A DNA stretch of 64,000 bases, taken from the NCBI GenBank assembly GCA_965237955.1, contig OZ250169.1, positions 5,152,001 to 5,216,000 on the forward strand, in the 5' to 3' direction. Origin of the DNA: Candidatus Marinacidobacterales bacterium. GTDB lineage: Bacteria; Acidobacteriota; Vicinamibacteria; Marinacidobacterales; SMYC01. The first letter of the stretch is position 1; every line of letters starts with the position of its first letter. The notes beneath the pieces were generated by a model that had not been told where the DNA came from, did not search any database, and saw only the letters and a list, made by a program, of their open reading frames with translations. Positions 6,518-59,360 of the stretch are shown one piece after another. The position numbers and the translations under genes were made by a program.

Positions 6518-9150
6518 AGCTCGAGTCGCGTCCGAATCTCGTCCGCCAGTCCCCCCTCTCGAGTCGCAGCCAGCGCAACCGCTCTTTCGGCGGCGCGGAC
6601 GGCTCTGGGAAAATCGCCCGCGGAGGCGTAAGCGGCAGCCAGGGTGTCCAGAACGACGGGCTGCCGGTGCCCAGTGAGCTCCGCGGCGCGCTCGGCGAGC
6701 CGGACGGCCTCCTCGGGGTTCCGCTTCGCTTCATCGGGATGGGTGGCGACGATCCAGGCGATCTCGTTCATCGGCTCGGTCCACTCCGGCCTCTGGGCGA
6801 GGGCGGCTCGGAAGTGGGCGAGGGGCTCGTCGCCCTCGCCCCTCATGCGGAGGGCCAGGCCCAGATTGTTGTGCGCTTCCGCATGCCTGGGATCGGTCTC
6901 GAGACATTGTCGAAAGTGGACGATGGCCTCCTCGAGCTCGCCCTGCGATCCGGCCAGGCTGCCGAGATTGTTGTGCGCTGCGGCGAGGTGTGGATCGAGT
7001 GCCAACGCCCGGCGGTAGTGGCGTGCAGCTTCGTCCGACTTGCCCTGTTGCTTGAGCGTCACCCCGAGCTCGTTGTGCGCAGGCGCGAGGTCGGGATCGA
7101 TGCGCAAGGCCTCCTCGAGCTGTTTTTTGGCCTCGTTCGTCTTCCCGAGATCCCGGAGAGCGACGCCGAAACGGTACCGCACGGGGGCGCGCTCGGGATC
7201 GATCCGAAGCGCTTCGCGAAAGTGATCCAGGGCCGCCTCCGGCTTTCGCTGAGCCAAAAGGGCGTTCGCGAAGTAGAAGTGCGCTTCCGCCGAGCCACCG
7301 TCGAGAGCGAGAGCCCGACGGTAGTACGTCATCGCCTCGTCGAGCTTGCCCTCGGTTGCCAGCACCAGTCCGAGGTGGGCGGTGGCCTCGGCGCTGTCCG
7401 GCTCCGCGGCAACGGCCTCGCGCAGCAAGGCCGCGGCCTCATCGATCCGACCCTGCTCGGTGAGCGCGCGCGCCAGGCCGGCCTTGGCCTCCGTGAAGTC
7501 GGGCCGAAGCTCGATGGCTCTCCGAAGGTGGGGGATGGCCTCGTCCGTCGCGCCCAGCCTTCTCAGGGCACGCGCCAGCCCGAAATGGGCGCTCTCTTTC
7601 TCGGGTTCGAGCTCCACGGCACGTGCATAAGCGTCTCGGGCCTTGGCCGGTTCCTCCTGTCCCTGGGCGATCTCTGCGACCAGAAGGTGAGCCGGGACGT
7701 AGTAGGGATGCGTTGTTAGCATGCGCTCGGCGAGGGGCCGCGCCCGATCGTAGTCTCCTTCGTGCACGAGCTCCGTCGCCTGCTGATGATCCCCGTAGAA
7801 CTCGATCCAGTCCTTCGGATCGTCTTTGCCCTGCTCGAAGCGAAGCTCGATCGCGTTCGAGCCCCGGGCGAGATACCCCAGGGACTCCAGACGCCGTATC
7901 GAGGCGTCATCGAGCTCGAGGGTGTTCTCGTTCTCTTGTCGCCGGCTGTGGGATTCCAGAATCTCCGCCAGCCGCGTCTTCATCGCTTCGGCGAGCTCGG
8001 TCTCTTCCTGGACCAGATTTCGTTCTTCGTCGGGGTCGCTCTCGAGGTCATAGAGCTCGGGCCGCGTCGACTGGATGTACTTCCACTTGGAGGTCACGAG
8101 CCCGTAAAGCGAGCTCGTGTCGTAGAAGCGGGTCGGGGTGAGGCTCTGAGCGTAGAACTCTTTCGCCTTGCCGGACACGGGCTCTCCCGAGAGCAGGGGC
8201 GAGAGGTCGTCGCCTTGCGCCGCCGGGGGCGGATCCAGACCGAGAATGCCGGCCAGGGTAGGTACGATGTCGATGAGCCCGACCGTCTGGTCGACCTGCC
8301 TCGGCTCGGTGAGGCCCGGCGGCCTGATGATGAGCGGCACCTCGAGCGCGCTTTGATAGATGAAGTATCCGTGGTCGCGCTCGCCGTGCTCGCCGAGCAT
8401 CTCGCCGTGGTCGCTGGTGAGGACGATCCACGTCGAGTCGATGAGGCCGAGCTCTTCGAGCTTGTCCACGACCTGGCCGACACCGTGGTCGACGAAAGCG
8501 ATCTCACCGGCATAGAGATCGTCGGCGAAACGCGAAGCGAAGGGCTCGGGCGGATCGTAGTCGTGGTGCGGATCGTAGTAATGGAGGAACAGGAAAAAGT
8601 TTTCGTCTCGGTGGTCTTCGAGCCATTGCCGCGCCAATCGCGTCGTCTCATCACCTTTCCTCTCGCCCAAGAGGAGTATCTTGTGCTCCTCTTCGAAGCG
8701 GTCGTCATCGGTATCGAAGCCCTGGCTCAAGTTGAATTTCGAGTCCAGGACGAAGCTTGAGACGATGGCTCCCGTCGTGTAGCCCCTTTCTCCCAGCATC
8801 TCGGCCAGGGTCACGTTCGCGTCGTCGAGGCGATAACTGAGGTTATCGTGCATGCCGTGGACCGGAGGGATGGTTCCCGTCAACATCGAGCTGTGCGCGG
8901 GCAGAGTCGTGGGGACGGGGGAGATCACGTGTTTGAAGAGCACGCCCGCTCGCGCGATGGCATCGATGTTCGGCGTCGTCTCACGTGGGAAACCGTAGCT
9001 CGTCGCGTAGTCGGCCCTCAGCGTATCGATGCTGATGAGGAGAACGTTGGGGGTTGCCGAGCGGAAGGGGTCGCAGGACAAAAAGAGCGCCATCGCGAGC
9101 ACGGCCGCCGCCAGCAGAGGATTTCGTCGACTCTCGGATGTGTCGGGCAC
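6481..9150 (-). CDS. Sulfatase-like hydrolase with C-terminal TPR array (putative lipoprotein)
   Basis: NVLLISIDTLRAD, TLPAHSSMLTG, YDPH, SDHGE motifs; LSC lipobox-like; start uncertain (GTG 9150). Confidence 0.9.
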   Translation of the reverse strand: MPDTSESRRNPLLAAAVLAMALFLSCDPFRSATPNVLLISIDTLRADYATSYGFPRETTPNIDAIARAGVLFKHVISPVPTTLPAHSSMLTGTIPPVHGMHDNLSYRLDDANVTLAEMLGERGYTTGAIVSSFVLDSKFNLSQGFDTDDDRFEEEHKILLLGERKGDETTRLARQWLEDHRDENFFLFLHYYDPHHDYDPPEPFASRFADDLYAGEIAFVDHGVGQVVDKLEELGLIDSTWIVLTSDHGEMLGEHGERDHGYFIYQSALEVPLIIRPPGLTEPRQVDQTVGLIDIVPTLAGILGLDPPPAAQGDDLSPLLSGEPVSGKAKEFYAQSLTPTRFYDTSSLYGLVTSKWKYIQSTRPELYDLESDPDEERNLVQEETELAEAMKTRLAEILESHSRRQENENTLELDDASIRRLESLGYLARGSNAIELRFEQGKDDPKDWIEFYGDHQQATELVHEGDYDRARPLAERMLTTHPYYVPAHLLVAEIAQGQEEPAKARDAYARAVELEPEKESAHFGLARALRRLGATDEAIPHLRRAIELRPDFTEAKAGLARALTEQGRIDEAAALLREAVAAEPDSAEATAHLGLVLATEGKLDEAMTYYRRALALDGGSAEAHFYFANALLAQRKPEAALDHFREALRIDPERAPVRYRFGVALRDLGKTNEAKKQLEEALRIDPDLAPAHNELGVTLKQQGKSDEAARHYRRALALDPHLAAAHNNLGSLAGSQGELEEAIVHFRQCLETDPRHAEAHNNLGLALRMRGEGDEPLAHFRAALAQRPEWTEPMNEIAWIVATHPDEAKRNPEEAVRLAERAAELTGHRQPVVLDTLAAAYASAGDFPRAVRAAERAVALAATREGGLADEIRTRLELYRSEEPFRERF

Positions 9151-9250
9151 GGTTGATGATAGAGCTTGGTATCCGACCTGAGCAAGTTTCGTGGTCCCGC
9201 TAGCCGCCGCGTTGACAACTCTCATATCGCACAACAGAATCTACGAAAGC

Positions 9251-10915
9251 ATGAAACACCCGGCCCTGAGTGTAGTGTGGCTCGCGACCGCGGCGGCGGC
9301 GGCCGAGGGGCCGATTTTCACGGAAATCACACGGAAAGTCGGCATCGATTTCGTCCACGAGGCGGGCGCCGAAGGGAAGTACGTGCTTCCCGAGATCATG
9401 GGTGCGGGAGCGGCCTTTCTCGACGTCGAGGGCGACGGGGATCTGGACGTCTATCTCGTCCAGTCGGGCCCCCTTCCGGAATCGGGAGCGAGAGACCGAC
9501 CAGCGAATCGTCTCTTCCACCAGAACGATGATGGCTCTTTCACCGACATCACGGTGGACTCCGGGCTCGGAGATCGGGGTTATGGAACGGGAGTCGCGGT
9601 CGGGGATATCGACAACGACGGTCTCGTCGACGTCTACGGTGGGAAACTATGGGCCCGACGCTCTCTGCCGCAACGACGGTGGCGGCAAGTTCACCGAGGT
9701 GACGCGGCGGGCAGGCATCTCGGTTCCCACCTGGACGTCTTCCATGGTCTTTTGTGACTACGACGGGGACGGCTTCCTGGACCTCTATGTCACGAGCTAT
9801 GTGAGCCACGATGCTTCCAAGGCCTGCGTTCGCGGCGACGGCGCCCCCGACTACTGCAGCCCGCAGAGCTTTGCCTACGATCCGGATACCCTCTATCACA
9901 ACAACGGAGACGGGAGTTTCACCGACGTTTCGAAGAGCTCCGGTATCGGCCGTATCGACGCCCCCGGTCTCGGAGTCGTGTGCTCGGATCTCACCGGCGA
10001 TGGGCTTGTCGATTTCTACGTCGCCAACGACGGCGAGGCCAACCAGCTCTGGGAGAACCAGGGTGACGGGAAGTTCGCCGATGCGGCTATCCTGCTGGGC
10101 GCCGCTCTGAACGCCATGGGGCAGGCGGAAGCGAGCATGGGTGTAGCCCTCGGAGACGTGGACGGCGACGGCGATCTCGACCTCTTCATGACCCACCTGG
10201 AGAACCAGACCAACACCTTGTATCTGAACGACGGCCACTGAGGTTTCGAAGACGTGACCTCAGCTCGCGGTCTGGGCGCGCCCAGCGTCAAATTCACGGG
10301 TTTCGGAACGGCTTTCTTCGACTTCGACCACGACGGCGATCTCGACATCGTCGTCGTGAACGGTCGCGTGGCCTGGGCCGAATCGCTTCCCGGCGCGAGC
10401 GGCGACGAATACTGGGGTCCCTATGCGGAGCCGAATTTTCTGGTGGAGAACGACGGGCGGCGAAAATTCACGGACGCCAGTGAGCGTACAGGGGAGTTTG
10501 GACGGCTGGTCGAGGTGAGCCGCGGGCTCGCTCTCGGAGACGTCGACGGCGATGGTGATCTGGACCTGCTGATGACCCACACCGGCGGCCCGGCCCGACT
10601 CTTCCGAAATGACGCGGCGAAGGCGGGGAGCTGGCTTCTCGTTCGTACCGTTGAAGGCAAACGTGACGCCCACGGTGCCGTCGTTACCCTGCGTGCCGGC
10701 GGGAGAAGCATGACACGCGAACCGCCGACCCTGCTTACAGCTATCTCTCGAGCAACGATCCCCGCGCCCACTTCGCCGTCGTCGTCGCCGAGCGTTTCGA
10801 GGAGATTCTCGTGCGCTGGCCCGACGGCTCCGAGGAGAGCTTCTCAGGCGGTGCTTTGAACCGGATCCTGGTTGTCGAGAAGGGCACGGGAAAGAAGAGG
10901 CCTGGCTCGGAATGA
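9251..10915 (+). pseudogene. CRTAC1/ASPIC-UnbV family protein (FG-GAP/VCBS repeats), broken by two frameshifts and a TGA at 10239
   Basis: DxDGDGDLD repeats, SRGLALGD, SYLSSNDPRAHF and VRWPDG spread over three frames. Confidence 0.85.
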
Positions 10916-13080
10916 GAAAATGAGGCGCACCGTCACGCTTGTGCTCGTCTTTCGAGCCGGGATCGCGCTCGCCTCGGAATCGAGCCACGAGAGGATGCTG
11001 TCGCTCCTGGCCGAGATCCGCGACCGTGCCCCGGAAGAGCATACGTACTTGAGCGATCGCGAGGCGCGGCGACTTGGGGCACGCCTGGCCGAAATGAAGC
11101 CGGGGGCGCTCGATCTCGTCCGCCTCGAGCTCCACCTGAAGCTCGGCGAGGAGGAGCAGCGCCTCGGGAACGAGACCGCCGCCATCGAGAGCTTGACCGC
11201 GGCCTATCGCCTGCTTCCACGGGTGAGGGAGGACGTGGCCAAAGAGTGGATCGTCAGGCTTCTCTTCCGTCTGGCAATGGCGCACCTCCGTTTGGGAGAG
11301 ACGCGGAACTGCGCCCTCACAACCTCTCCCGACGCCTGCATCCTTCCCATTCGAGGTGGCGGCATTCACGTGGACCCGGAGCCCTCGCGCGAAGCCATAC
11401 GATATTTCGCCGAGTGCCTCGAGGAGGCGCCTTTCGGATCGGACCCCTACCTCTCCGCGAGGTGGCTCATCAACATCGCCTACATGACGGTGGACGGCTA
11501 CCCGGACGACGTGCCACCCTCTTACCTCATCCCCGAAGAGCGCTTTGTGTCCGAGCTCGCCTTCCCGCGATTCGAGAACGTGGCTCTCGGCGCCGGCGTC
11601 GCCACGTTCAGCCTCGCAGGGGGTGCCATCGCCGAGGACTTCGATCTCGACGGCCATCTCGATCTCGTCGTCTCCACCGGCGATCCCGCGGGGCAGATGC
11701 GCCTGTTCATTAACGACGAGGAGGGCGGTTTCACCGGAGCGCACCCGTGAGGCCGGACTCGTTGGCTTGTTCGGCGGTTTGAACCTGGTTCAAGCCGACT
11801 ACGACAACGATGGAGACGTCGACGTGCTCGTGCTTCGGGGTGGGTGGATGGTGCGTGAGGGCAGGCATCCGAACTCGCTCCTCCGCAACAACGGTGACGG
11901 CAGCTTTACCGATATCACCTTCGACGTCGGGCTGGGTGAGGTGCACTTGCCCACGCAGACCGCCTCTTGGGGTGATTTCGACAACGACGGGGATCTCGAC
12001 CTCTACGTGGGTAACGAAACGACGCCCGAGCTTCGAGAGGCGCCGTGCCAGCTCTTTCGAAACGACGGAGGGTACTTTCGAGACGTGGCGGCGGCGGCAG
12101 GGGTTACGAACCGGCGGTTCACGAAGTCCGTCGTCTGGGGAGACTACGACGCCGACGGCTGGCTCGATCTCTACGTCTCCAACATCCACGGCGACAATCG
12201 GCTCTACCGCAACCGGGGCGACGGGCGTTTCACGGATGTGGCGCTGGATCTCGGCGTGGCGGACCCCCAAGTGAGCTTCCCCGCCTGGTTCTGGGATTTC
12301 GATAACGATGGCCATCTAGACCTCTACGTGACGTCCTATGACACGAGCATCGGGGATCTCGCGGGCGTCCACCTCGGCCTCGGCTTCTCGAAGGAGCTGG
12401 CCAAGCTCTACCGCGGTGATGGAGGAGGAGCCTTCGTCGATGTAGCCGAGAACCGCAACTTGACCATGCCGGCGGCCACCATGGGCTCCAACTTCGGCGA
12501 TCTGGACAATGACGGGTTCCTCGACTTCTACCTGGGTACGGGAGCGCCGCCCTACGAGGACCTCATGCCGAACGTGATGTATCTGAACCGGGAGGGCGAG
12601 CGCTTCTCCGACGTGAGCGCCGCGGGAGGCTTCTCTCACTTGCAGAAAGGCCACGGGGTCGTGTTCGCGGATCTCGACCACGACGGCGATCAGGACGTGT
12701 TCGAGCAGATGGGTGGCTTCTTCGCCGGGGACCGGTTCCACGACGCGCTCTACGAGAACCCGGGCTTCGGCAACCGCTGGCTCACGGTGGAGCTCTTCGG
12801 CGTCCAATCCAATCGCCTTGCGGTCGGCACGCGGCTCCGCGCTCGCATACGGGTAGGGGGAGGGAGCCTCGACGTGTACAAGCACGTCAACAGCGGTGGC
12901 ACCTTTGGCGCCAACTCCTTTCGTCAGACTCTGGGTCTCGGAGAGGCCGAGAGTCTTCTGGAGCTCGAGGTAGTCTGGGCGGGCTCCGGACGTCGTCAAA
13001 TCTTCACCGACATCCCGCTCGACAGCTTCGTCCAGATCCGCGAAGGCTGGTCCGAGCCCCGGCGCGTCTCGCTCCCTTAG
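10912..13080 (+). CDS. CRTAC1/ASPIC-UnbV family protein with N-terminal helical region; frameshift near 11735
   Basis: ORFs 10872-11750 and 11545-13080 join; DYDNDGDVD repeats, HLQKGHG, SGGTFG motifs. Confidence 0.85.
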
Positions 13081-44384: not shown

Positions 44385-44624
44385 ATGACCACTCGCAACA
44401 AAACGATTAGCGCCAGCGATTTCAAAGCTCGATGCGGTCAAGTGATCGCTGACGTCGCAGAGGGCCGAGGTCCTGTCGTGATTACGAAGCGCGGGCGGCC
44501 CACCGCTAAGTTGGTGCCGGCGGACGGGGAGCGCAAATCGCTCTTCGGCTTCGCACGGGGCTGCATTACGATTCGCGGCGATATCGTGGAGCCCATCGAC
44601 GTCGAGTGGGATGCGGCTCGTTGA
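44385..44624 (+). CDS. Phd/YefM family antitoxin
   Basis: ISASDFKARC, PVVITKRGRPTAKLVP. Confidence 0.92.
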   Translation: MTTRNKTISASDFKARCGQVIADVAEGRGPVVITKRGRPTAKLVPADGERKSLFGFARGCITIRGDIVEPIDVEWDAAR

Positions 44625-45024
44625 GGCCGACACCCATATTCTCATCTGGCTCGCCGAAGGCACCGCCGAGCTGGAGTCTTCATCGGTCGCGCGCTTGGAG
44701 GATGTCACACGAGCCGACGGGTTAGCGGTTTCGGCGATCTCGTTTTGGGAGGTCGCAATGCTTCAGGAGCGGCAGCGGATCAACCTTTCTCTTCCCGTTC
44801 GCCGTTGGCGAGAAATCGTCCTCGAGACTTCCGGCTTCATCGAAGCTCCTCTCACGGGGGAGATCGCGATCGAATCCGTAAATCTCCCTGGCACGTTCCA
44901 TCACGATCCGGCGGACCGCATGCTCGTTGCCACTGCGCGCTTGAATGGATGGGCGATCGCGACGCGAGATGACCGTATCCTGTCCTACGGGAATGCGGGC
45001 AACGTAGACGTTTTGCACGTGTAG
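44611..45024 (+). CDS. vapC: VapC PIN-domain toxin
   Basis: DTHILIW, SAISFWE, HHDPADRMLVA, TRD; overlaps the antitoxin. Confidence 0.92.
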   Translation: MRLVEADTHILIWLAEGTAELESSSVARLEDVTRADGLAVSAISFWEVAMLQERQRINLSLPVRRWREIVLETSGFIEAPLTGEIAIESVNLPGTFHHDPADRMLVATARLNGWAIATRDDRILSYGNAGNVDVLHV

Positions 45025-49573: not shown

Positions 49574-49640
49574 AAATGCGTGCCTCGAGAGACTGTGCTA
49601 GTCTGATAGGACTACACCACACATGAGGAGCACACAAGGC

Positions 49641-49790
49641 ATGGAGCCCATCCGTGAAAAGGATGTCGAGCGGAGGCGTGACGCGGAGCCTGATCGTATT
49701 CGTCGCGTTTTGCGGGACATCGCCGCCGACGCGCGCGCGTTGAAGGACCGCTACCTCGACGACACGATTGTGCCCGAGGGCGGCGAGTAG
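49641..49790 (+). CDS. Candidate Pup-like small modifier, 49 aa, ending GGE (not in ORF track)
   Basis: MEPIREKDVERRRDAEPDRIRRVLRDIAADARALKDRYLDDTIVPEGGE*; RBS GAGGAG at 49625-49630; ends 29 nt before a PafA/Dop homologue. Confidence 0.82.
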   Translation: MEPIREKDVERRRDAEPDRIRRVLRDIAADARALKDRYLDDTIVPEGGE

Positions 49791-49819
49791 TCCTCGCCCC
49801 CAGGCATTGGAAGTGAGCG

Positions 49820-51493
49820 GTGCTGTTCTCTCGCCTGATGGGGCAAGAGACCGAGTACGCGATACGATTCTCTCCCAAGCTCGGCCATCCCGGTAACGAC
49901 CGTATCTACGGTTTTCTAGCCCAGGCCATCGGACGCCACGTTCGCACCGAGCCGGGCCTCTATCCGGGCCGCCCGCAGATCTTCATGCAAAACGGCGGCG
50001 GCTTTCACTATGAGTATCGGCCTCATCGTGTCGGTGATGGGCTCATCGAAGGCGCGACCCCCGAATGCCGTGGTCCGGGTCAGCTACTCTTGTATCAGAA
50101 AGCGCAAGAGGCGTTGCTCATGAAGGTCATCCCCGCGGCGGAGACGAGCCTTAGCGAGCAGGGTTTTCCCGGGAAGCTGGGCCTTCTCAAAAACTGCCGC
50201 GACGCGCAGGGAAATGTCTACGGCGCGCAGGAGAGTTTTCAAGTGAGCGTCGCGAGTGGGCTTTCGCTCGTGGCCTACCGTTTAGGATTGGCCGGCTTGC
50301 TGCCGCTCCTCGCGCTCACGGTTGTGCTCGGCTGGCTATTCATTTTCGTCGCACTCGTAGCACTCGCCTTGGCGGTCGCTGGTGGCGTCGTTGTCGCGTT
50401 GCCCCCGTTTCGCCGGCGTCGATGGCTCGAGCGTCTCATGGATTTCGAAGAGAAAAACGTCAAGAGCGCGCTCGGTCGTATGCGTGACGCGACGACGTGG
50501 CCGTTCTTCGCTGGCTTGTGGCTCGTTACGAAGCTGTTCGCATTCCGTAAGGTTCGGCGGACCGCCATGGCCTTTTTCGTTTCTCGCGCTGCCTTCTCGG
50601 GCGCCGGGAGTGTCGAGGCCCATGGTCGGTTCTCGCTCTCCGAGAAAGGTGCCGCGATCAACAGGATTCTGCGGCGTTCCATGAGTCCGTCTGAGCGGCC
50701 GATTTTCGATACCGGCAACCTCATGAGGCCGGCGTTCGCGGCCGCTCATTTTCATCTCGATCCCGTCGCGGGCCTGTTCGCGCGCAAGCAACGCTTGCAG
50801 CTCGGGCTTGCAGACTCGAGCATGCTCGAAGAGGCCGAGTTTCTCAAAATGGGCACGACCGCTCTCGTGATCGACATGGCGGAAGCGGGATTTCTCTCCG
50901 ATGCCCCTCGACCGCTCGACCCCGTTGCCGCGCTGCACACACTCGTGAGCGACCCCGCGCTCGAGGCAGTCGTGAACACGAACCAGGGCGAGCTGACCGC
51001 GCTCGCGCTCCAACGCTTCTACCTCGATAAGTCCAAAGCGTTCGTGACGGAGTCGAAAGCGACGTCACTCGAAGCGTCGGAGGTCGTCAACCTCTGGGAC
51101 GAAGTGCTGAGTGCGCTCGAGGAGCGCAAGATGGACAAGCTCGTCGGCCGCGTCGATTGGGTCACGAAACGGTATCTCCTCGAAGCGTGTGGCGACGAAG
51201 GTGATGCCGCGATGCTGAAAACGATCGACCTGCGCTACCACGAGCTCGGCGAAGGTTATGCAGAGCAGTTTGCCAAGACCGGGAACGTTCACCGCCTTCT
51301 CGCACCGTCGGAAGTCGAGCGCGCGATCGAGGAGCCGCCGGAAGGTACCCCAGCCTATACGCGCGGCCGCTTCATTCGGTCGCGGGCAGCCAACTTGACA
51401 CCGGTGCGCATCTCGTGGGACTCGGCTTTGATTGGCGGGCGCATCAAAGGGAAGATCATCCGGTTTCCCGATCGGGGCGGTCCGACAGAGTAG
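49820..51493 (+). CDS. Divergent PafA/Dop (Pup ligase/depupylase) family protein with a transmembrane insertion
   Basis: [67 protein letters not shown]. Confidence 0.9.
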
Positions 51494-53052: not shown

Positions 53053-53861
53053 TCATCGCCGAGTCCCACCCGGACGACGAGGCGACCGGTTTCGAAGTCG
53101 ACGACCTCCGAGGCTGGATGTGGGCCGAAGTGCCTCGCGAGCAATAACCTCTCCCCGCTTGGGCCGCTTGGGCCGCTTGGGGAAGACTCCTGGGAACGAC
53201 TCTCTGTCTAGACGGAGTTGAAGTGTCGGTTGCGGTTCACGCACGCGGTCCGCTGAGCGACGGTAGCGGTCCATCTTGTCTTTGCCGAAGTCCAGCTCAG
53301 CCATGTAACCGTTATGCGTTTTGCAAGCGAGCCGAATATTTTCAGCGCTTCGATCGCCGCCGACGCCATAGGGCTCGTCGTGGTGGAACTCCACTCCCTC
53401 GCGCGCCGGGCAGCGCCTGCCGTCTTTGGTCTCATACGTGCATTGACCGCCGTCACGCTCCCATACGAAGCGTCTCACCGGGGCGGAGATGCCCCGCGCA
53501 CACCGGGCGACGTGTCGGCTTCTTCGAGACTCTTTCTCGTGTTTTTCGTCTTACCGAAACGCTTGGCTTCCAGCCGTTCGAGTTTCTCGCTCACGGCAGC
53601 TTCCATAACCGAAGCGAGGTCTACGCCAGGCATGAGCGCGGAGAGCCGCTCGATTTTGTCACGAAACTCGGCGCTCGCCGTGAACTGAACTTTATAACGC
53701 GCGGGGGCCAGCGGCTCGACGACCGCCAGCTTCTCAGGTGCTTTCGGAGCAGGAGCTGGCGGAGGGGCCTGACAATTCTCTCCGACGCTGTCTGGACCGG
53801 CTCCGTCTGAACGAGGCTCGGATTTAGACGCTCTGAGTTGGCGCCTGTCGGGTGTAAACAC
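53053..53861 (-). pseudogene. HNH endonuclease-domain protein; 5'-truncated, frameshift near 53490
   Basis: PLAPARYKVQFTAS; RRFVWERDGGQC, EFHH..P...GG, NIRLACKTHN. Confidence 0.82.
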
Positions 53862-54339: not shown

Positions 54340-57117
54340 AGACCTCTCCCATCCTGGTCACAAACTCGCCCGCTACGAGATTCTCGAGCCCATCGGCAAG
54401 GGCGGGGAGTTCGCTGAGAACGAAGAACGCCTAGTCCCCTGTATCAGAACAAACTAGATAAAGCAGAGCTTGCCGAAACCCTTCTAAGTGCATGAATCTT
54501 ATGAATCTTATGGGCTGGCGAAAAGCCTAACTTTGTATACTAATCAAAGATCCAGGGGACTAGCCCGATTCAAGCGAGAGGCCAAGGTTCTTGCGTCTTT
54601 GAACCATCCGAACATCGCTGCCATTCACGGGCTGGAGGAGTCCGAAGGTACACATTACCTCGTTCTCGAGCTTGTCCCGGGCGAGACTCTGGCCGAAAGG
54701 ATCTCACGCGGTCCCATTCCGGTTGAAGAAGCTATCGAGATCGCCACCAAGATCGCCGAAGCCCTGGAGGAGGCGCACGAACAAGGAATCGTTCACCGGG
54801 ATCTAAAACCCGCCAACATCAAGCAGACCGACGACGGCAAGATCAAGGTTCTGGACTTCGGTCTCGCCAAAGCTTTCGCCAAGGAATCGCCCGAGGCCGA
54901 CAGCTCGATGTCTCCCACGCTTACTAGAGATGCAACTCGGGTGGGCGTGATTCTCGGGACCGCGGCGTATATGAGTCCCGAGCAAGCCAAGGGAAAGCGT
55001 GTTGACAAGCGAACCGACGTGTGGGCGTTCGGTGCGGTCGTCTACGAGATGCTTACGGGAAAGCGGGCGTTCGCTGGTGAAGATGTTTCCGACACGCTCG
55101 CCGCTGTGCTACGAGCGGAGCCGGGCTTCGACGCGCTGCCCGCTGAGACGCCTGCCTCACTCCGGCGGGCGTTGAGGCTCTGCCTGACGAAAGACGTGAA
55201 GCAGCGCTTTCACGCCATGGGTGACGTGCGACTCATGTTGGAGGGTGCACTCGAGCCCGAGCAACCGCTCGGCCGAGCGGGCCCGTCACCACCGGCTCCA
55301 CCGGCGCGGGTCCGCACGGCGGCAGTGTTGCTGCTCGGTGTTGCGACGGGAGCGGCTGCGATTTGGTTCCTTTCTTCGCGCGAGCCTTCGCCGAAGCCGA
55401 TGGTCCGGCGGGCAGAGATCGTGCTGCCCCCATCGGAGAGGTTGTTCTATGGTGCGGGCATCGGGCGTCCCGTGATCGTGTCGCCCCAGGGGACGCATCT
55501 CGTGTACGCGGCGAGGAGAGAATCGTCTGTGCGCCAGCTCTTCGTTCGGCGTTTCGATACGGATCTCGCCACGCCTATCCCCGGAACCGAGAGAGCACTA
55601 CAGTTCTTCTTTTCCCCTGAAGGCGACTGGCTCGGTTTTTTCGCCGACGGTAAGCTCAAGAAGGTCGCACTCTCGGGAGATGTTCTCAAGGAGCTCTGCG
55701 ATGTAACCTATCCACTCGGCGGAGACTGGGGTCGCGACGAGGTCATCTACTTCGCGAGTAGTGCGTGGAGAGACGGAGAATTAGATCCATTGCTATCGGG
55801 TCTCTTTCGGATCCCGTCCGATGGGGGTGTCCCAGAGCAACTGGTGACGGCAGAAGGCGAGCATGCAGATGCTGCTCACCGGTGGCCGCACATTTTGCCG
55901 AAGGGTGACGGAGTCCTCTACACATCCTACGCGCGGGACACATTCTCATCCAACATCGTGTTTCAATCGTTGTTGACTGGAGAGAGCCGTGTCCTGATTG
56001 AAAACGGTGCCAACCCAGTCTATCTGCTGACTGGACACATTCTCTTCCGGCGAGACGACGCTCTTTTGGGGCAGCGCCTCTTGATGCCATCCGCTACCAG
56101 GTCAATGGCAATCCCGCTGAGGTGGCTGACGGGGTCTTAAGCCGTGGAGCGTTCGAATCCGGCTTCCACGTTTCGTTGGAAGGAACGCTGGTTTACGTGC
56201 GAGCTCAGGAGAATCCCGAAAGCGAGCTCGTGTGGGTGGATCGGCAGGGAGGGACGGAGCTCCTGCGCGACTCGAGGGCCGAGCATACTCCGCACCCTCG
56301 GCTCTCGCCGGAGGGGAGACGCGTTGCGGTGACCCGCGGCGGGCTCGGCGCTGATCCGCCGAGCATTTGGATTTACGAGATCGATAGAGGCATCTCGACA
56401 GAGCTGACATTATCGGACGCCGCTAGCTATCGGCCGCTTTGGACGCCGGACGGCAAGAGCATTGTCTACGGGCGCGACGCCACTGGCGGTGTTGACATTT
56501 ACATGACTCGCTCCGACGGGAGCGGGGAAGAGCACCAACTAACGTCGGGAGGGTATCGAGTCCCGACCTCCGTGTCGCCGGACGGCGCGTTCGCGTTCTT
56601 CCGCGAGATGGGACGCAGCTGGGATATCGGCATGGTGCGCCTCGACGGGTCGAGCGGCCCGGAAACGCTGGTCGCATCTGATTACGCCGAGCACACTCCT
56701 GTACTTTCGCCCGATGGGCGGTGGCCCGCCTACGTGTCCGACGAAAGCGGACGCGAGGAGATCTTCGTTCGCCCGTTCCCAGAACTCGAACCCACGACGC
56801 GTCTTTCAACGGAGGGCGGCGCGGAGCCCGCTTGGGCCAGAGGCGGAACTGAGCTCTTTTATAGGAACTTCACGAAGATGATGCTCGTCCCCATCCGAAC
56901 GGGGACCGAACTCCTGCCGGGGCGTCCTGCCGAACTCTTCGAGGGCTGGTATCAGATGGGAGACATTCAGTCGGCTCCCAATACGAACTACGACGTCTCT
57001 CTGGATGGGAAGCGGTTCCTCATGTTGCGGGATGTTGCCGGAGGTCACCTGGACTCACGTATTCAGGTAGTCTTCAACTGGCACGAAGAGCTGCTTAGGC
57101 TGGTTCCGGTGAATTGA
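54340..57117 (+). pseudogene. Hanks-type Ser/Thr kinase with TM and PD40/TolB-like propeller; N-lobe deletion, MITE insertion and frameshift near 56070
   Basis: YEILEPIGKGG, HRDLKPAN, DFGLAK, GTAAYMSPE; SPDG repeats; ends VFNWHEELLRLVPVN. Confidence 0.9.
54435..54559. mobile_element. 125-bp MITE with CTAG target duplication inside the kinase gene
   Basis: TIRs TCCCCTGTATC / GATCCAGGGGA; CTAG at 54431-54434 and 54560-54563; removal restores ERL-ARFKRE. Confidence 0.88.
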
Positions 57118-57372: not shown

Positions 57373-58651
57373 ATGCCAAACCGGATTGCTGGGATAGACG
57401 TTCACAAGAAGATGCTGGCGGTGGTGGTCGCCGACATCGCAGTAGAGGGCGAGTATAAGTTTTCGCGCCGGCGTGTGGGCACGAGACCGAGTGAGCTTCG
57501 GGCTCTGGCGGAGTGGCTGGTGGCCGAGGGGGTCGATGAAGTAGTGATGGAATCGACCGCGCAATATTGGCGCCCGGTGTGGGAGGCGTTGGAGCGGTCC
57601 TGGGCTCCGCAGTGCCGAGCTCGGCCGGGCGCGGGTGCGCAGTCGGGCAACTTGCATCTGGCGCAAGCAAAGTCGAATCGCGGCGCGCGGGGTCGGAAGC
57701 GGTATTTTCCGGATGCCGAACGATTGGTGAAGCGTTTGGTGGCGCAGGAGCTGACTCTAAGCTTCGTTCCCGAGCCGGAGCAGCGCCTGTGGCGAACGGT
57801 GATGCGCCGCAAGTACCAGTTCACGCGTAACCGGGTTCAGCTCCAAAACCGCCTAGAGTCGTTGCTGGAGGAAGCGCATCTAAAGTTGTCGAGCCTGGTG
57901 TCGGATCTTCTGGGGCTGAGTGCGCGGCGGATGTTGCAAGCCTTGGCGGACGGGGAAACGGAGCCGGCCCGCTTGGCGGAGTTGGCCGACCGTCGATTGC
58001 GTGCCACGCCCGAGCAGTTGTGCGATGCGCTCGGCGCGTGTGCCGATCTCAACCCCGTCTATCGGAAGCTCGTGCAAATGACGCTCGAGGAATTACGATT
58101 GCTCGAAGAGCAGAGCGCGCAACTCGATGAAGAGATGGCGCATCTGCTCGGCGAGCATCAAGCAGCTGTGCAACGACTCGCTGAAGTGCCTGGGCTCGGC
58201 GTGGATTCGGCGCAGCAGATCATCGCGGAAGTCGGGGCGAGCGCCGAGACGTTTCCGTCGGCCAAGCACCTCGCGTCCTGGGTGGGCGTGTGCCCCGGAG
58301 AGCACGAAAGCGCCGGCAAAAGCTACAGCCATCGCTCGCCCAAAGGCAGTCGGCCGATGCGCCGCCTCCTCAATCAAGCCGCCAACGCGGCCGTCAAGAC
58401 CAAAGGGAGTTTCTTCCAGCTCGTGTACCGGCGCTTGGTTCCACGCCTGGGGCACGCGCAAGCCATCTGGGCCGTTGCCCATCGGTTGTGTCGTTTAATC
58501 TGGAAGATTCTCCACCAGGGCGTTGACTATGAGGAACGTGGCCCCGACGTTAGCCGCGCGCGCTCCAAACGACGCATTGCCAAATATGATCCGCGACCTG
58601 CGCAAACTCGGATATCACATCGAGCCTTCTCTACGGGGAGATCCAGCATGA
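57373..58651 (+). CDS. IS110 DEDD recombinase/transposase; frameshift near 58585
   Basis: GIDVHK, VMESTAQYW, VPGLG, HESAGK; true tail MIRDLRKLGY ends at TGA 58651. Confidence 0.93.
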
Positions 58652-58670
58652 CGATAGATGTTTTTCGATC

Positions 58671-59360
58671 CTGGTTCGAAGAGTTGAAGCGCCTCGTCCC
58701 GACCGACAACTGACATGCCCCTCACCCCGGAACCAAGCTCGGCACCTACGAGATCATCGCCGCCATCGGCGCAGGTGGAATGGAGAAGTCTACCGAGCCA
58801 GCGACACCAAGCTCGACCGAGACGTTGCAATCAAAGTCCTTCCCGAGGAGTTCGCCCAAGACAAGGAGCGCCTTGCCAGGTTCGAGCGGGAGGCCAAGCT
58901 CCTGGCGCAGCTGAACCATTCGAACATCGCCACGCTCCATGGGCTCGAAGAGCACGAAGGCCAGCAGTTCCTGGTGATGGAGCTCGTCGAGGGGGAGATC
59001 TTGGCGGAGCGGATTGCGCAGGGTCCGATCCCCGTCGACGAAGCGATCCCGCTCTTCATCCAGATTGCCGAAGGCCTCGAAGCGGCTCATGACAAGGGAA
59101 TCATTCATCGAGACCTGAAGCCGGCGAACATCAAGATCGGTCCAGACGGCAAGCCGAAGATTCTGGACTTCGGTTTGGCGAAGGCGCTGGAAGGGGACGA
59201 AGGTAGTGATCCGTCGGAGTCGCCCACGATGACAGCCGCCCCCACGCGGGCGGGTGTGATCATGGGCACGGCGGTGTACATGTCGCCGGAGCAAGCCCGG
59301 GGCAAGCCAGTCGATAGGCGGGCTGACATCTGGTCGTTTGGCGTCGTGCTCTTCGAGATC
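58671..59360 (+). pseudogene. Orphan kinase 3' end (WFEELKRLVPTDN*) followed by a frameshifted, truncated Ser/Thr kinase (ATG 58715)
   Basis: GTYEIIAAIGAGG, DVAIKVLPEE, HRDLKPAN, DFGLAK; homology stops after DIWSFGVVLFE. Confidence 0.88.

Follow-up and report, generated by a model that had tools for sequence, protein, structure and literature searches.

A Glu-ending small tag and a transmembrane-insert PafA/Dop-family ligase form a candidate proteasome-free pupylation-like pair in Acidobacteriota

The tag and ligase genes and their surroundings

The window, a 64,000-nt stretch of an acidobacterial contig, carries on its forward strand a small ORF and, 29 nt after its stop codon, the start of a PafA/Dop-family gene (Table 1). 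The first-pass annotation had described the former as a 49-aa charged ORF with a ribosome-binding site and a PEGGE terminus, and re-reading of the sequence bears this out. The product contains 14 D/E and 12 K/R residues, and an alternative in-frame ATG at position 49623 would extend it to 55 aa. The GTG of the ligase gene is preceded at a distance of 6 nt by GGAAG. A promoter scan of the locus returned 0 sites, and terminator-like sites numbered 4 against 3.1 expected.

Table 1. Coordinates of the features of the tag–ligase locus (positions within the window)
Feature	Position	Strand	Description
GAGGAG, Shine-Dalgarno-like	49625..49630	+	10 nt 5' of the tag ATG (sequence)
Tag ORF	49641..49790	+	49 aa, Pup-like, C-terminus PEGGE, stop TAG (end 49790)
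Ligase gene	49820..51493	+	557-aa PafA/Dop-family carboxylate-amine ligase, transmembrane-insert clade; GTG start
GhExE metal/ATP motif, strand 1	49841..49855	+	G-Q-E-T-E, residues 8-12; E10 in 127/130 and E12 in 128/130 homologues
Glu65	50012..50014	+	Site of the PafA/Dop catalytic Asp; aligns with Asp of 4B0T (Asn in 4BJR)
Insert after core strand 4	50240..50548	+	About 100 aa (residues 141-243): predicted membrane hairpin (147-193), then basic residues and amphipathic helices
Clade-specific helical segment	50714..50785	+	Residues 299-322, where PafA/Dop have the short, polar RDEPHA loop
Helices 453-489	51176..51286	+	Predicted surface for the tag's helix (co-fold interface)

A metagenome scan with an alignment of 130 ligase proteins yielded 79 loci, from which we examined the 64 with a listed match at or near the ligase start, setting the other 15 aside. 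Searching upstream of these homologues for conserved short GG[E/Q] ORFs, a check proposed in the first-pass annotation, revealed an open frame ending in G[EQ]-stop within 400 nt of the ligase in 59 of the 64 loci, several of which are near-duplicates. As a background, a G[EQ] frame lies within 300 nt upstream of 153 of the 4182 long ORFs in the host's own genome, and the stricter GG[EQ] frame upstream of 25 of the 4182. Among 17 close copies of the tag, differences fall at codon position 3 in 2032 cases, compared with 1043 at position 1 and 684 at position 2, and single-base codon changes are synonymous in 1143 cases versus 464 that are not. Given the enrichment of the frame over the background and the third-position bias, the tag ORF does not represent a chance frame, and the small ORF is a genuine gene. 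An identical protein is present on 13 contigs of a gene-call collection, where the only cluster name is "hypothetical protein".

Three of the 5 loci without a tag frame are accounted for by their structure: L125 has just 25 nt of DNA 5' of the ligase, and L134 and L136 are canonical Dop loci with their Pup downstream. The other 2, L094 and L112, encode insert-bearing ligases with no G[EQ] frame directly upstream (L094:4200-4630; L112:5580-6000); here, the tag may be located elsewhere, have diverged or have been lost. At 3 further loci (L048, G305:C25:9539-10189; L090; and L091), the middle of the ligase (query residues approximately 204-526) is mostly lost and the upstream tag ORF is intact; these loci have the appearance of decaying copies and are followed by a KptA-like gene.

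Contigs assembled from 2 RNA runs of a single study match positions 49653-49869 and 49702-49873 with no mismatch. The same runs also cover scattered spots over a 19.9-kb stretch, and their contigs give neither strand nor level and may contain DNA; their coverage of the tag is at most a weak hint of expression. Contigs from these runs also pile up over positions 54430-54564 in a repeat-like manner.

The pair is flanked by genes for a class III aminotransferase and chorismate synthase (aroC), neighbours that the first-pass annotation had named correctly, as judged by domain matches. Alternative frames blurred an all-versus-all clustering of ORFs from 99 loci, and upstream neighbours were analysed less cleanly than downstream ones. 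Recurring among the 43 downstream ORFs are aroC (9 loci) and KptA (3 loci), both in close relatives only, plus 5 pairs, and none of these ORFs forms a cross-lineage cluster larger than a pair. We therefore rejected the aminotransferase, aroC and KptA as parts of the system. No conserved third gene that would name a target, a reader or a protease was found among the neighbours. At L035-L037, a Tpt1/KptA RNA 2'-phosphotransferase gene directly follows the ligase gene; it is missing at the host locus. The locus L120 encodes downstream (7849-12504) an 876-aa protein whose N-terminal part contains hydrophobic segments and which matches nothing in Pfam, along with a 670-aa low-complexity protein. 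The 876-aa protein may correspond to the membrane-protein gene reported for this type of locus (PMC2588565); it has no counterpart at the other loci, and the match in the host genome spans just 60 aa at an E value of 0.009.

Several other ORFs of the window could be read from their translations. Two short adjoining ORFs at 44385-45024 resemble an antitoxin and a PIN-domain toxin, and an ORF at 57373-58713 resembles an IS110-family transposase. The region 54488-57117 encodes a Ser/Thr kinase-like protein with a hydrophobic segment and beta-propeller-like repeats, apparently split across 2 frames around 56120-56140. On the minus strand, 2 overlapping ORFs at 53053-53861, one of them HNH-like, possibly represent a single frameshifted gene.

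Relation of the tag to Pup and UBact, and gene content of carrier genomes

A helix, Asp30, Tyr38 and the G-E end are common to the 59 aligned tags, all of which terminate in Glu (56 in GGE, 2 in SGE and 1 in DGE). The tag profile has one match in the host genome (E = 1.9e-14, the next best being 0.92), indicating a single copy. UBact tags end in R[S/T]G[E/Q]. Scoring against Pup and UBact HMMs, another check suggested at the outset, gave no match for the host tag or any of the 59 aligned tags with either the Pup profile PF05639, which recognised 2 control Pups at E values of 1e-20 or better, or the UBact profiles PF20513 and NF033388. The tag matched none of the Pfam and NCBIfam families, the Atlas offered no usable match, and a search of PDB sequences with the tag profile returned non-significant matches throughout, the best at E = 0.067 and none of them a Pup. 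Profile–profile alignment (hhalign) with 8 Pup-like tags was weak (E = 0.011, probability 3.8%), and that with 5 GGQ-ending tags was negative (E = 0.18). The first-pass annotation had stated that the peptide has only its terminus in common with Pup and lacks the UBact motif. The PEGGE end and the absence of profile matches agree with this statement, but its wording goes a little too far: the conserved helix and an aromatic residue approximately 12 positions from the end align weakly with Pup, and the co-fold interface (see below) comprises the last 34 residues of the tag.

The host genome consists of one contig of 8.13 Mb and is 98% complete. The absence of ARC/Mpa, prcAB and a second PafA/Dop gene, first noted for the window, extends to the whole genome. 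Whole-genome searches recovered one Pup_ligase (PF03136) gene and one tag, with no prcA or prcB, no ARC over the cut-off (best score 139.6 versus 504.75 bits) and no Pup or UBact over the cut-off. The sole PF00227 match in the genome was taken to be HslV because it directly precedes an ORF that, by eye, reads like HslU in translation. A strong match to canonical Pup or UBact together with a standard proteasome operon, which would have removed the novelty claimed by the first-pass annotation, was searched for in the host genome and not found. What remains at the genome level is a minimal two-gene tag/ligase module, as had been proposed, with one enzyme, one tag and no proteasome or ARC genes.

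Of 18 family genomes, 15 carry the ligase, and these same 15 carry the tag; one genome, G306, gave no match, its contig ending early. In 16 other carrier genomes, a search for the 20S alpha subunit gave no match, whereas it is present in 3 of 5 two-enzyme genomes from this phylum; the extra Pup_ligase matches in the 16 carrier genomes are fragments of one gene.

Two sets of two-enzyme loci were noticed in Acidobacteriota. One set (L005-L011 and L020-L025) encodes Pup-like tags with weak PF05639 matches and 2 enzymes, and a 20S alpha subunit is present in the 3 genomes tested; in one of the paralogues, a long insert occupies the Dop-loop position although the motifs are PafA-like. In the other set (L012-L015, L017 and L026-L029, from G208, G254, G290, G081 and G245), the tag ends in GGQ, the Pfam Pup profile matches 1 of 5 tags, weakly, and both enzymes lie on long branches. 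The 20S alpha subunit was searched for in G208 and G081 and not found, and these loci possibly represent a further divergent pupylation-like type.

Fold, membrane insert and active site of the ligase

The ligase matches Pup_ligase (PF03136) at E = 2.4e-71 and scores 163 bits against the curated PafA model (cut-off 551) and 149 bits against the Dop model (cut-off 492). Its AlphaFold model (pLDDT 95.2, pTM 0.94) has only Dop or PafA structures among its 10 best PDB matches (E values of 2e-28 to 4e-21). We checked the motif set of the family as defined in PMC2588565, namely, GhExE, acidic residues on strands 2 and 3, [HQ]x[NH], [QH]x4D and 2 arginines. These motifs are present (G8/E10/E12, E65, E77, Q137, Q327/D332, R325 and K276), and E77, E82, D128, R256 and R325 are invariant across the 130 homologues. 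Position 276 is Lys in 110 and Arg in 20 homologues, and position 139, Ser here, is Asn in 111 of the 130.

Co-folding of peptide and enzyme, also among the checks proposed, gave a score of 0.86, compared with 0.00 for the best of 3 controls; the runs share at least 96% of contacts, and the partner pLDDT is at least 74. Of 157 solved complexes, 116 reach the mark used for such scores, as do 2 of 215 mismatched pairs; with the alignments used here, these counts are only roughly valid. In the predicted complex, tag residues 16-49 contact helices 453-489 as well as E12, E65, N125, D128 and Q137, and the tail of the tag is placed at the active site. Because the solved PafA–Pup and Dop–Pup complexes (4BJR and 7OXY) may have primed the prediction, the co-fold is to be read as a modelled likeness to PafA/Dop–Pup and not as binding.

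The enzyme differs from Dop in a hydrophobic insert: the alignment to Dop stops at ligase residue 144 and restarts at 236. By Kyte–Doolittle (KD) hydropathy, 2 strong hydrophobic segments lie within residues 148-186 and are followed by RRRR, and in the AlphaFold model the insert forms long helices. A 19-residue window with KD of at least 1.6 is found in the insert of 129 of the 130 homologues, and 126 of the 130 have no such segment elsewhere; the number of hydropathy segments per insert is none in 1 homologue, one in 21, two in 54, three in 50 and four in 4. The hydrophobic insert agrees with the first-pass description of the enzyme as a membrane-anchored homologue; the ligase is likely to be anchored in the membrane, with a topology predicted from hydropathy alone.

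Such enzymes have been noticed before. Iyer, Burroughs and Aravind predicted computationally in 2008 a Pup beside a Pup ligase in Plesiocystis pacifica and Rhodopirellula baltica, the ligases carrying 4 predicted transmembrane segments directly after core strand 4, with no link to the proteasome and, in 2 genomes, with a linked membrane-protein gene; the small gene was unannotated, and regulatory pupylation of membrane proteins was proposed (PMC2588565). In Hecht et al. 2020, single-copy planctomycete paralogues serve as the outgroup to PafA and Dop, and the Rhodopirellula and Pirellula rows of its supplement have the same insert and motifs (PMC7947786). L120, whose tag ends in DGE and whose ligase is approximately 28-31% identical to that of the host, resembles by eye the Rhodopirellula rows of that supplement. 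In a quick tree with midpoint root only, 29 insert-bearing rows, including L120 and the host ligase, split from 26 non-insert rows with an SH-aLRT of 100. The host ligase almost certainly belongs to the transmembrane-insert clade predicted in 2008, and the identity of the tag family with the tags described then rests on L120. The nearest Atlas clusters are mostly from Myxococcota and Planctomycetota; the named taxonomic range of the family derives from these clusters and the one supplement, the tree and comparison being without a Plesiocystis sequence.

The claim that the system is new does not stand, the same gene pair and role having been predicted in 2008 (PMC2588565) and L120 falling in the same clade. 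The host locus is like the 2008 system in its small G[EQ] gene beside a PafA-family gene, its strand-4 insert, its lack of a proteasome and a tag that often goes unannotated, and unlike it in the acidobacterial host, in having 2 strong hydrophobic segments rather than 4 and in the lack of a linked membrane-protein gene, a linkage that we did not count as a defining trait because the clade does not conserve it. Experimental work on the clade was not found in the literature searched, the coverage of which leaves out most subscription journals.

Three active-site features mark the clade. The first is Glu65, conserved in 129 of the 130 homologues; the Asp at the matching site of PafA/Dop is described in PMC3511204 as a catalytic base or nucleophile. 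The second is the loss of the equivalent of PafA R193, a residue whose loss abolishes PafA activity (PMC7947786). Its site, located by counting, corresponds to ligase position 299, which is Gly in 98 of the 130 homologues; position 303 is basic (Lys in 114 of the 130, Arg here), and one might guess that this residue stands in for R193. The third is the helical segment that follows, which is 24 residues long and mildly hydrophobic (median KD +0.12, above 0 in 82 of the 130), compared with a polar loop of 9-10 residues and KD of −1.5 to −2.4 in PafA/Dop.

Other diagnostic features are mixed. The strand-1 motif and the NG motif are separated by 50 residues here, compared with 43 in actinobacterial PafA-like enzymes and 74-81 in Dop-like enzymes with the full loop; judged by this spacing, the Dop loop of approximately 37 residues is absent from the ligase. 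According to PMC7947786, loss of the Dop loop favours ligation, and the alpha-loop tells PafA (helix) from Dop (loop). The alpha-loop of the ligase is modelled as a strand plus loop at residues 280-293, without the PafA helix and with a sequence like neither enzyme; the 2 alpha-loop threonines of PafA are not retained, and the diagnostic triplet is mixed (A-T-P). The remodelled acceptor side and the non-helical alpha-loop weaken a simple reading of the enzyme as PafA plus an anchor.

Possible function of the pair

We favour, with a probability of about 0.68, the interpretation that the 2 genes encode a proteasome-free pupylation-like pair that would tag lysines of membrane-associated proteins in an ATP-dependent manner and without proteasomal degradation. 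The ligase would be anchored in the inner membrane with its catalytic domain in the cytoplasm, and the tag is predicted to dock on it and extend its tail into the active site. By analogy with PafA chemistry, ATP would be used to form a phosphorylated tag intermediate, from which the side chain of the last Glu would be transferred into an isopeptide bond with a lysine. The steps of which we are least sure are the last ones, in which the acceptor would be a lysine of a nearby membrane-associated protein and the mark would have a regulatory role or be recognised by a machine other than the proteasome. Because every tag ends in Glu, a deamidase would be unnecessary; were the sole enzyme a pure deamidase or depupylase, it would have nothing to act on, given that the tag already ends in Glu.

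Comparison with known systems places the pair as follows. With the actinobacterial Pup–proteasome system it shares the fold, the core catalytic residues, the GGE end and the predicted mode of tag binding, whereas the single enzyme, the lack of ARC and 20S genes, the membrane insert, the Asp-to-Glu replacement, the rebuilt RDEPHA loop and the PF05639-negative tag set it apart. Like UBact, it combines a small G[EQ] tag with a PafA/Dop-like enzyme outside Actinobacteria, but it is single-enzyme, proteasome-free and unmatched by the UBact profiles. The soluble pupylation system of Corynebacterium glutamicum retains ARC, unlike the host genome. Pupylation in that species also proceeds without 20S, with a non-degradative outcome on ferritin, as described in PMC8223512; the system there keeps Dop, whereas the host genome is without a separate Dop.

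An unlikely alternative, though the one that survives best, is that the ligase joins the tag to a non-protein membrane amine, such as an amino-phospholipid or an amino-acid lipid head group, yielding a lipid-anchored tag. The enzyme has its own predicted membrane anchor, its acceptor side is rebuilt clade-wide (Glu65, the missing R193 equivalent and the more hydrophobic 24-residue segment), no conserved gene for a protein target, reader or protease lies nearby, and ligation of small amines is known in the wider fold (PMC2588565). However, no lipid-synthesis gene is linked to the pair and the segment 299-322 is just mildly hydrophobic. Furthermore, to our knowledge, all characterised PafA enzymes modify protein lysines. 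A lipid acceptor would make the pair a two-gene bacterial protein-lipidation system, with Atg8-like logic and glutamine-synthetase-fold chemistry, that spans planctomycetes, myxobacteria and acidobacteria.

Slightly less probable still is that the one enzyme both adds and removes the tag, like an ancestor of PafA and Dop before their duplication, with ATP versus ADP plus phosphate setting the direction. The strongly supported separation of the clade from all 26 non-insert rows, its use as an outgroup, the nearly equal PafA and Dop model scores, the mixed diagnostic features and the lack of a separate eraser in the genome would fit such an enzyme, as would the engineered Dop hybrid that had both activities (PMC7947786). 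The missing Dop loop, on the other hand, speaks against removal, the tree has no true root, leaving ancestry unsupported, and the forward reaction overlaps with tag ligation as proposed above.

The Dop-like alpha-loop of the model and the lost R193 equivalent could also be taken to mean that the small protein is a non-covalent regulator or a hydrolase substrate that is never conjugated, but we consider this improbable, as the G-E end is kept in all 59 tags, the ATP/metal residues are conserved and the tag has no amide to hydrolyse. A chance origin of the small ORF, or membership of the locus in an ordinary Pup– or UBact–proteasome system, as the tag's lack of a Pfam or NCBIfam family and of a usable Atlas match might suggest, is hardly credible in view of the upstream frames (59/64 loci versus 153/4182 ORFs), the third-position bias and a genome in which prcA, prcB, ARC, a second enzyme, Pup and UBact are all missing.

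With the pair and its likely role already predicted in 2008, what is added here is a member from Acidobacteriota and the remodelled acceptor side; the analysis supplies a tag family that escapes the current Pup and UBact profiles, a high-confidence model of the ligase and 3 clade-specific changes in the active site. A membrane-anchored, orthogonal tag/ligase pair could serve in proximity labelling, a present use of PafA. If tagging of membrane proteins by the favoured pupylation-like pair indeed requires no proteasome, ARC or Dop, the pair would be the smallest pupylation-like system and would need a different reader.
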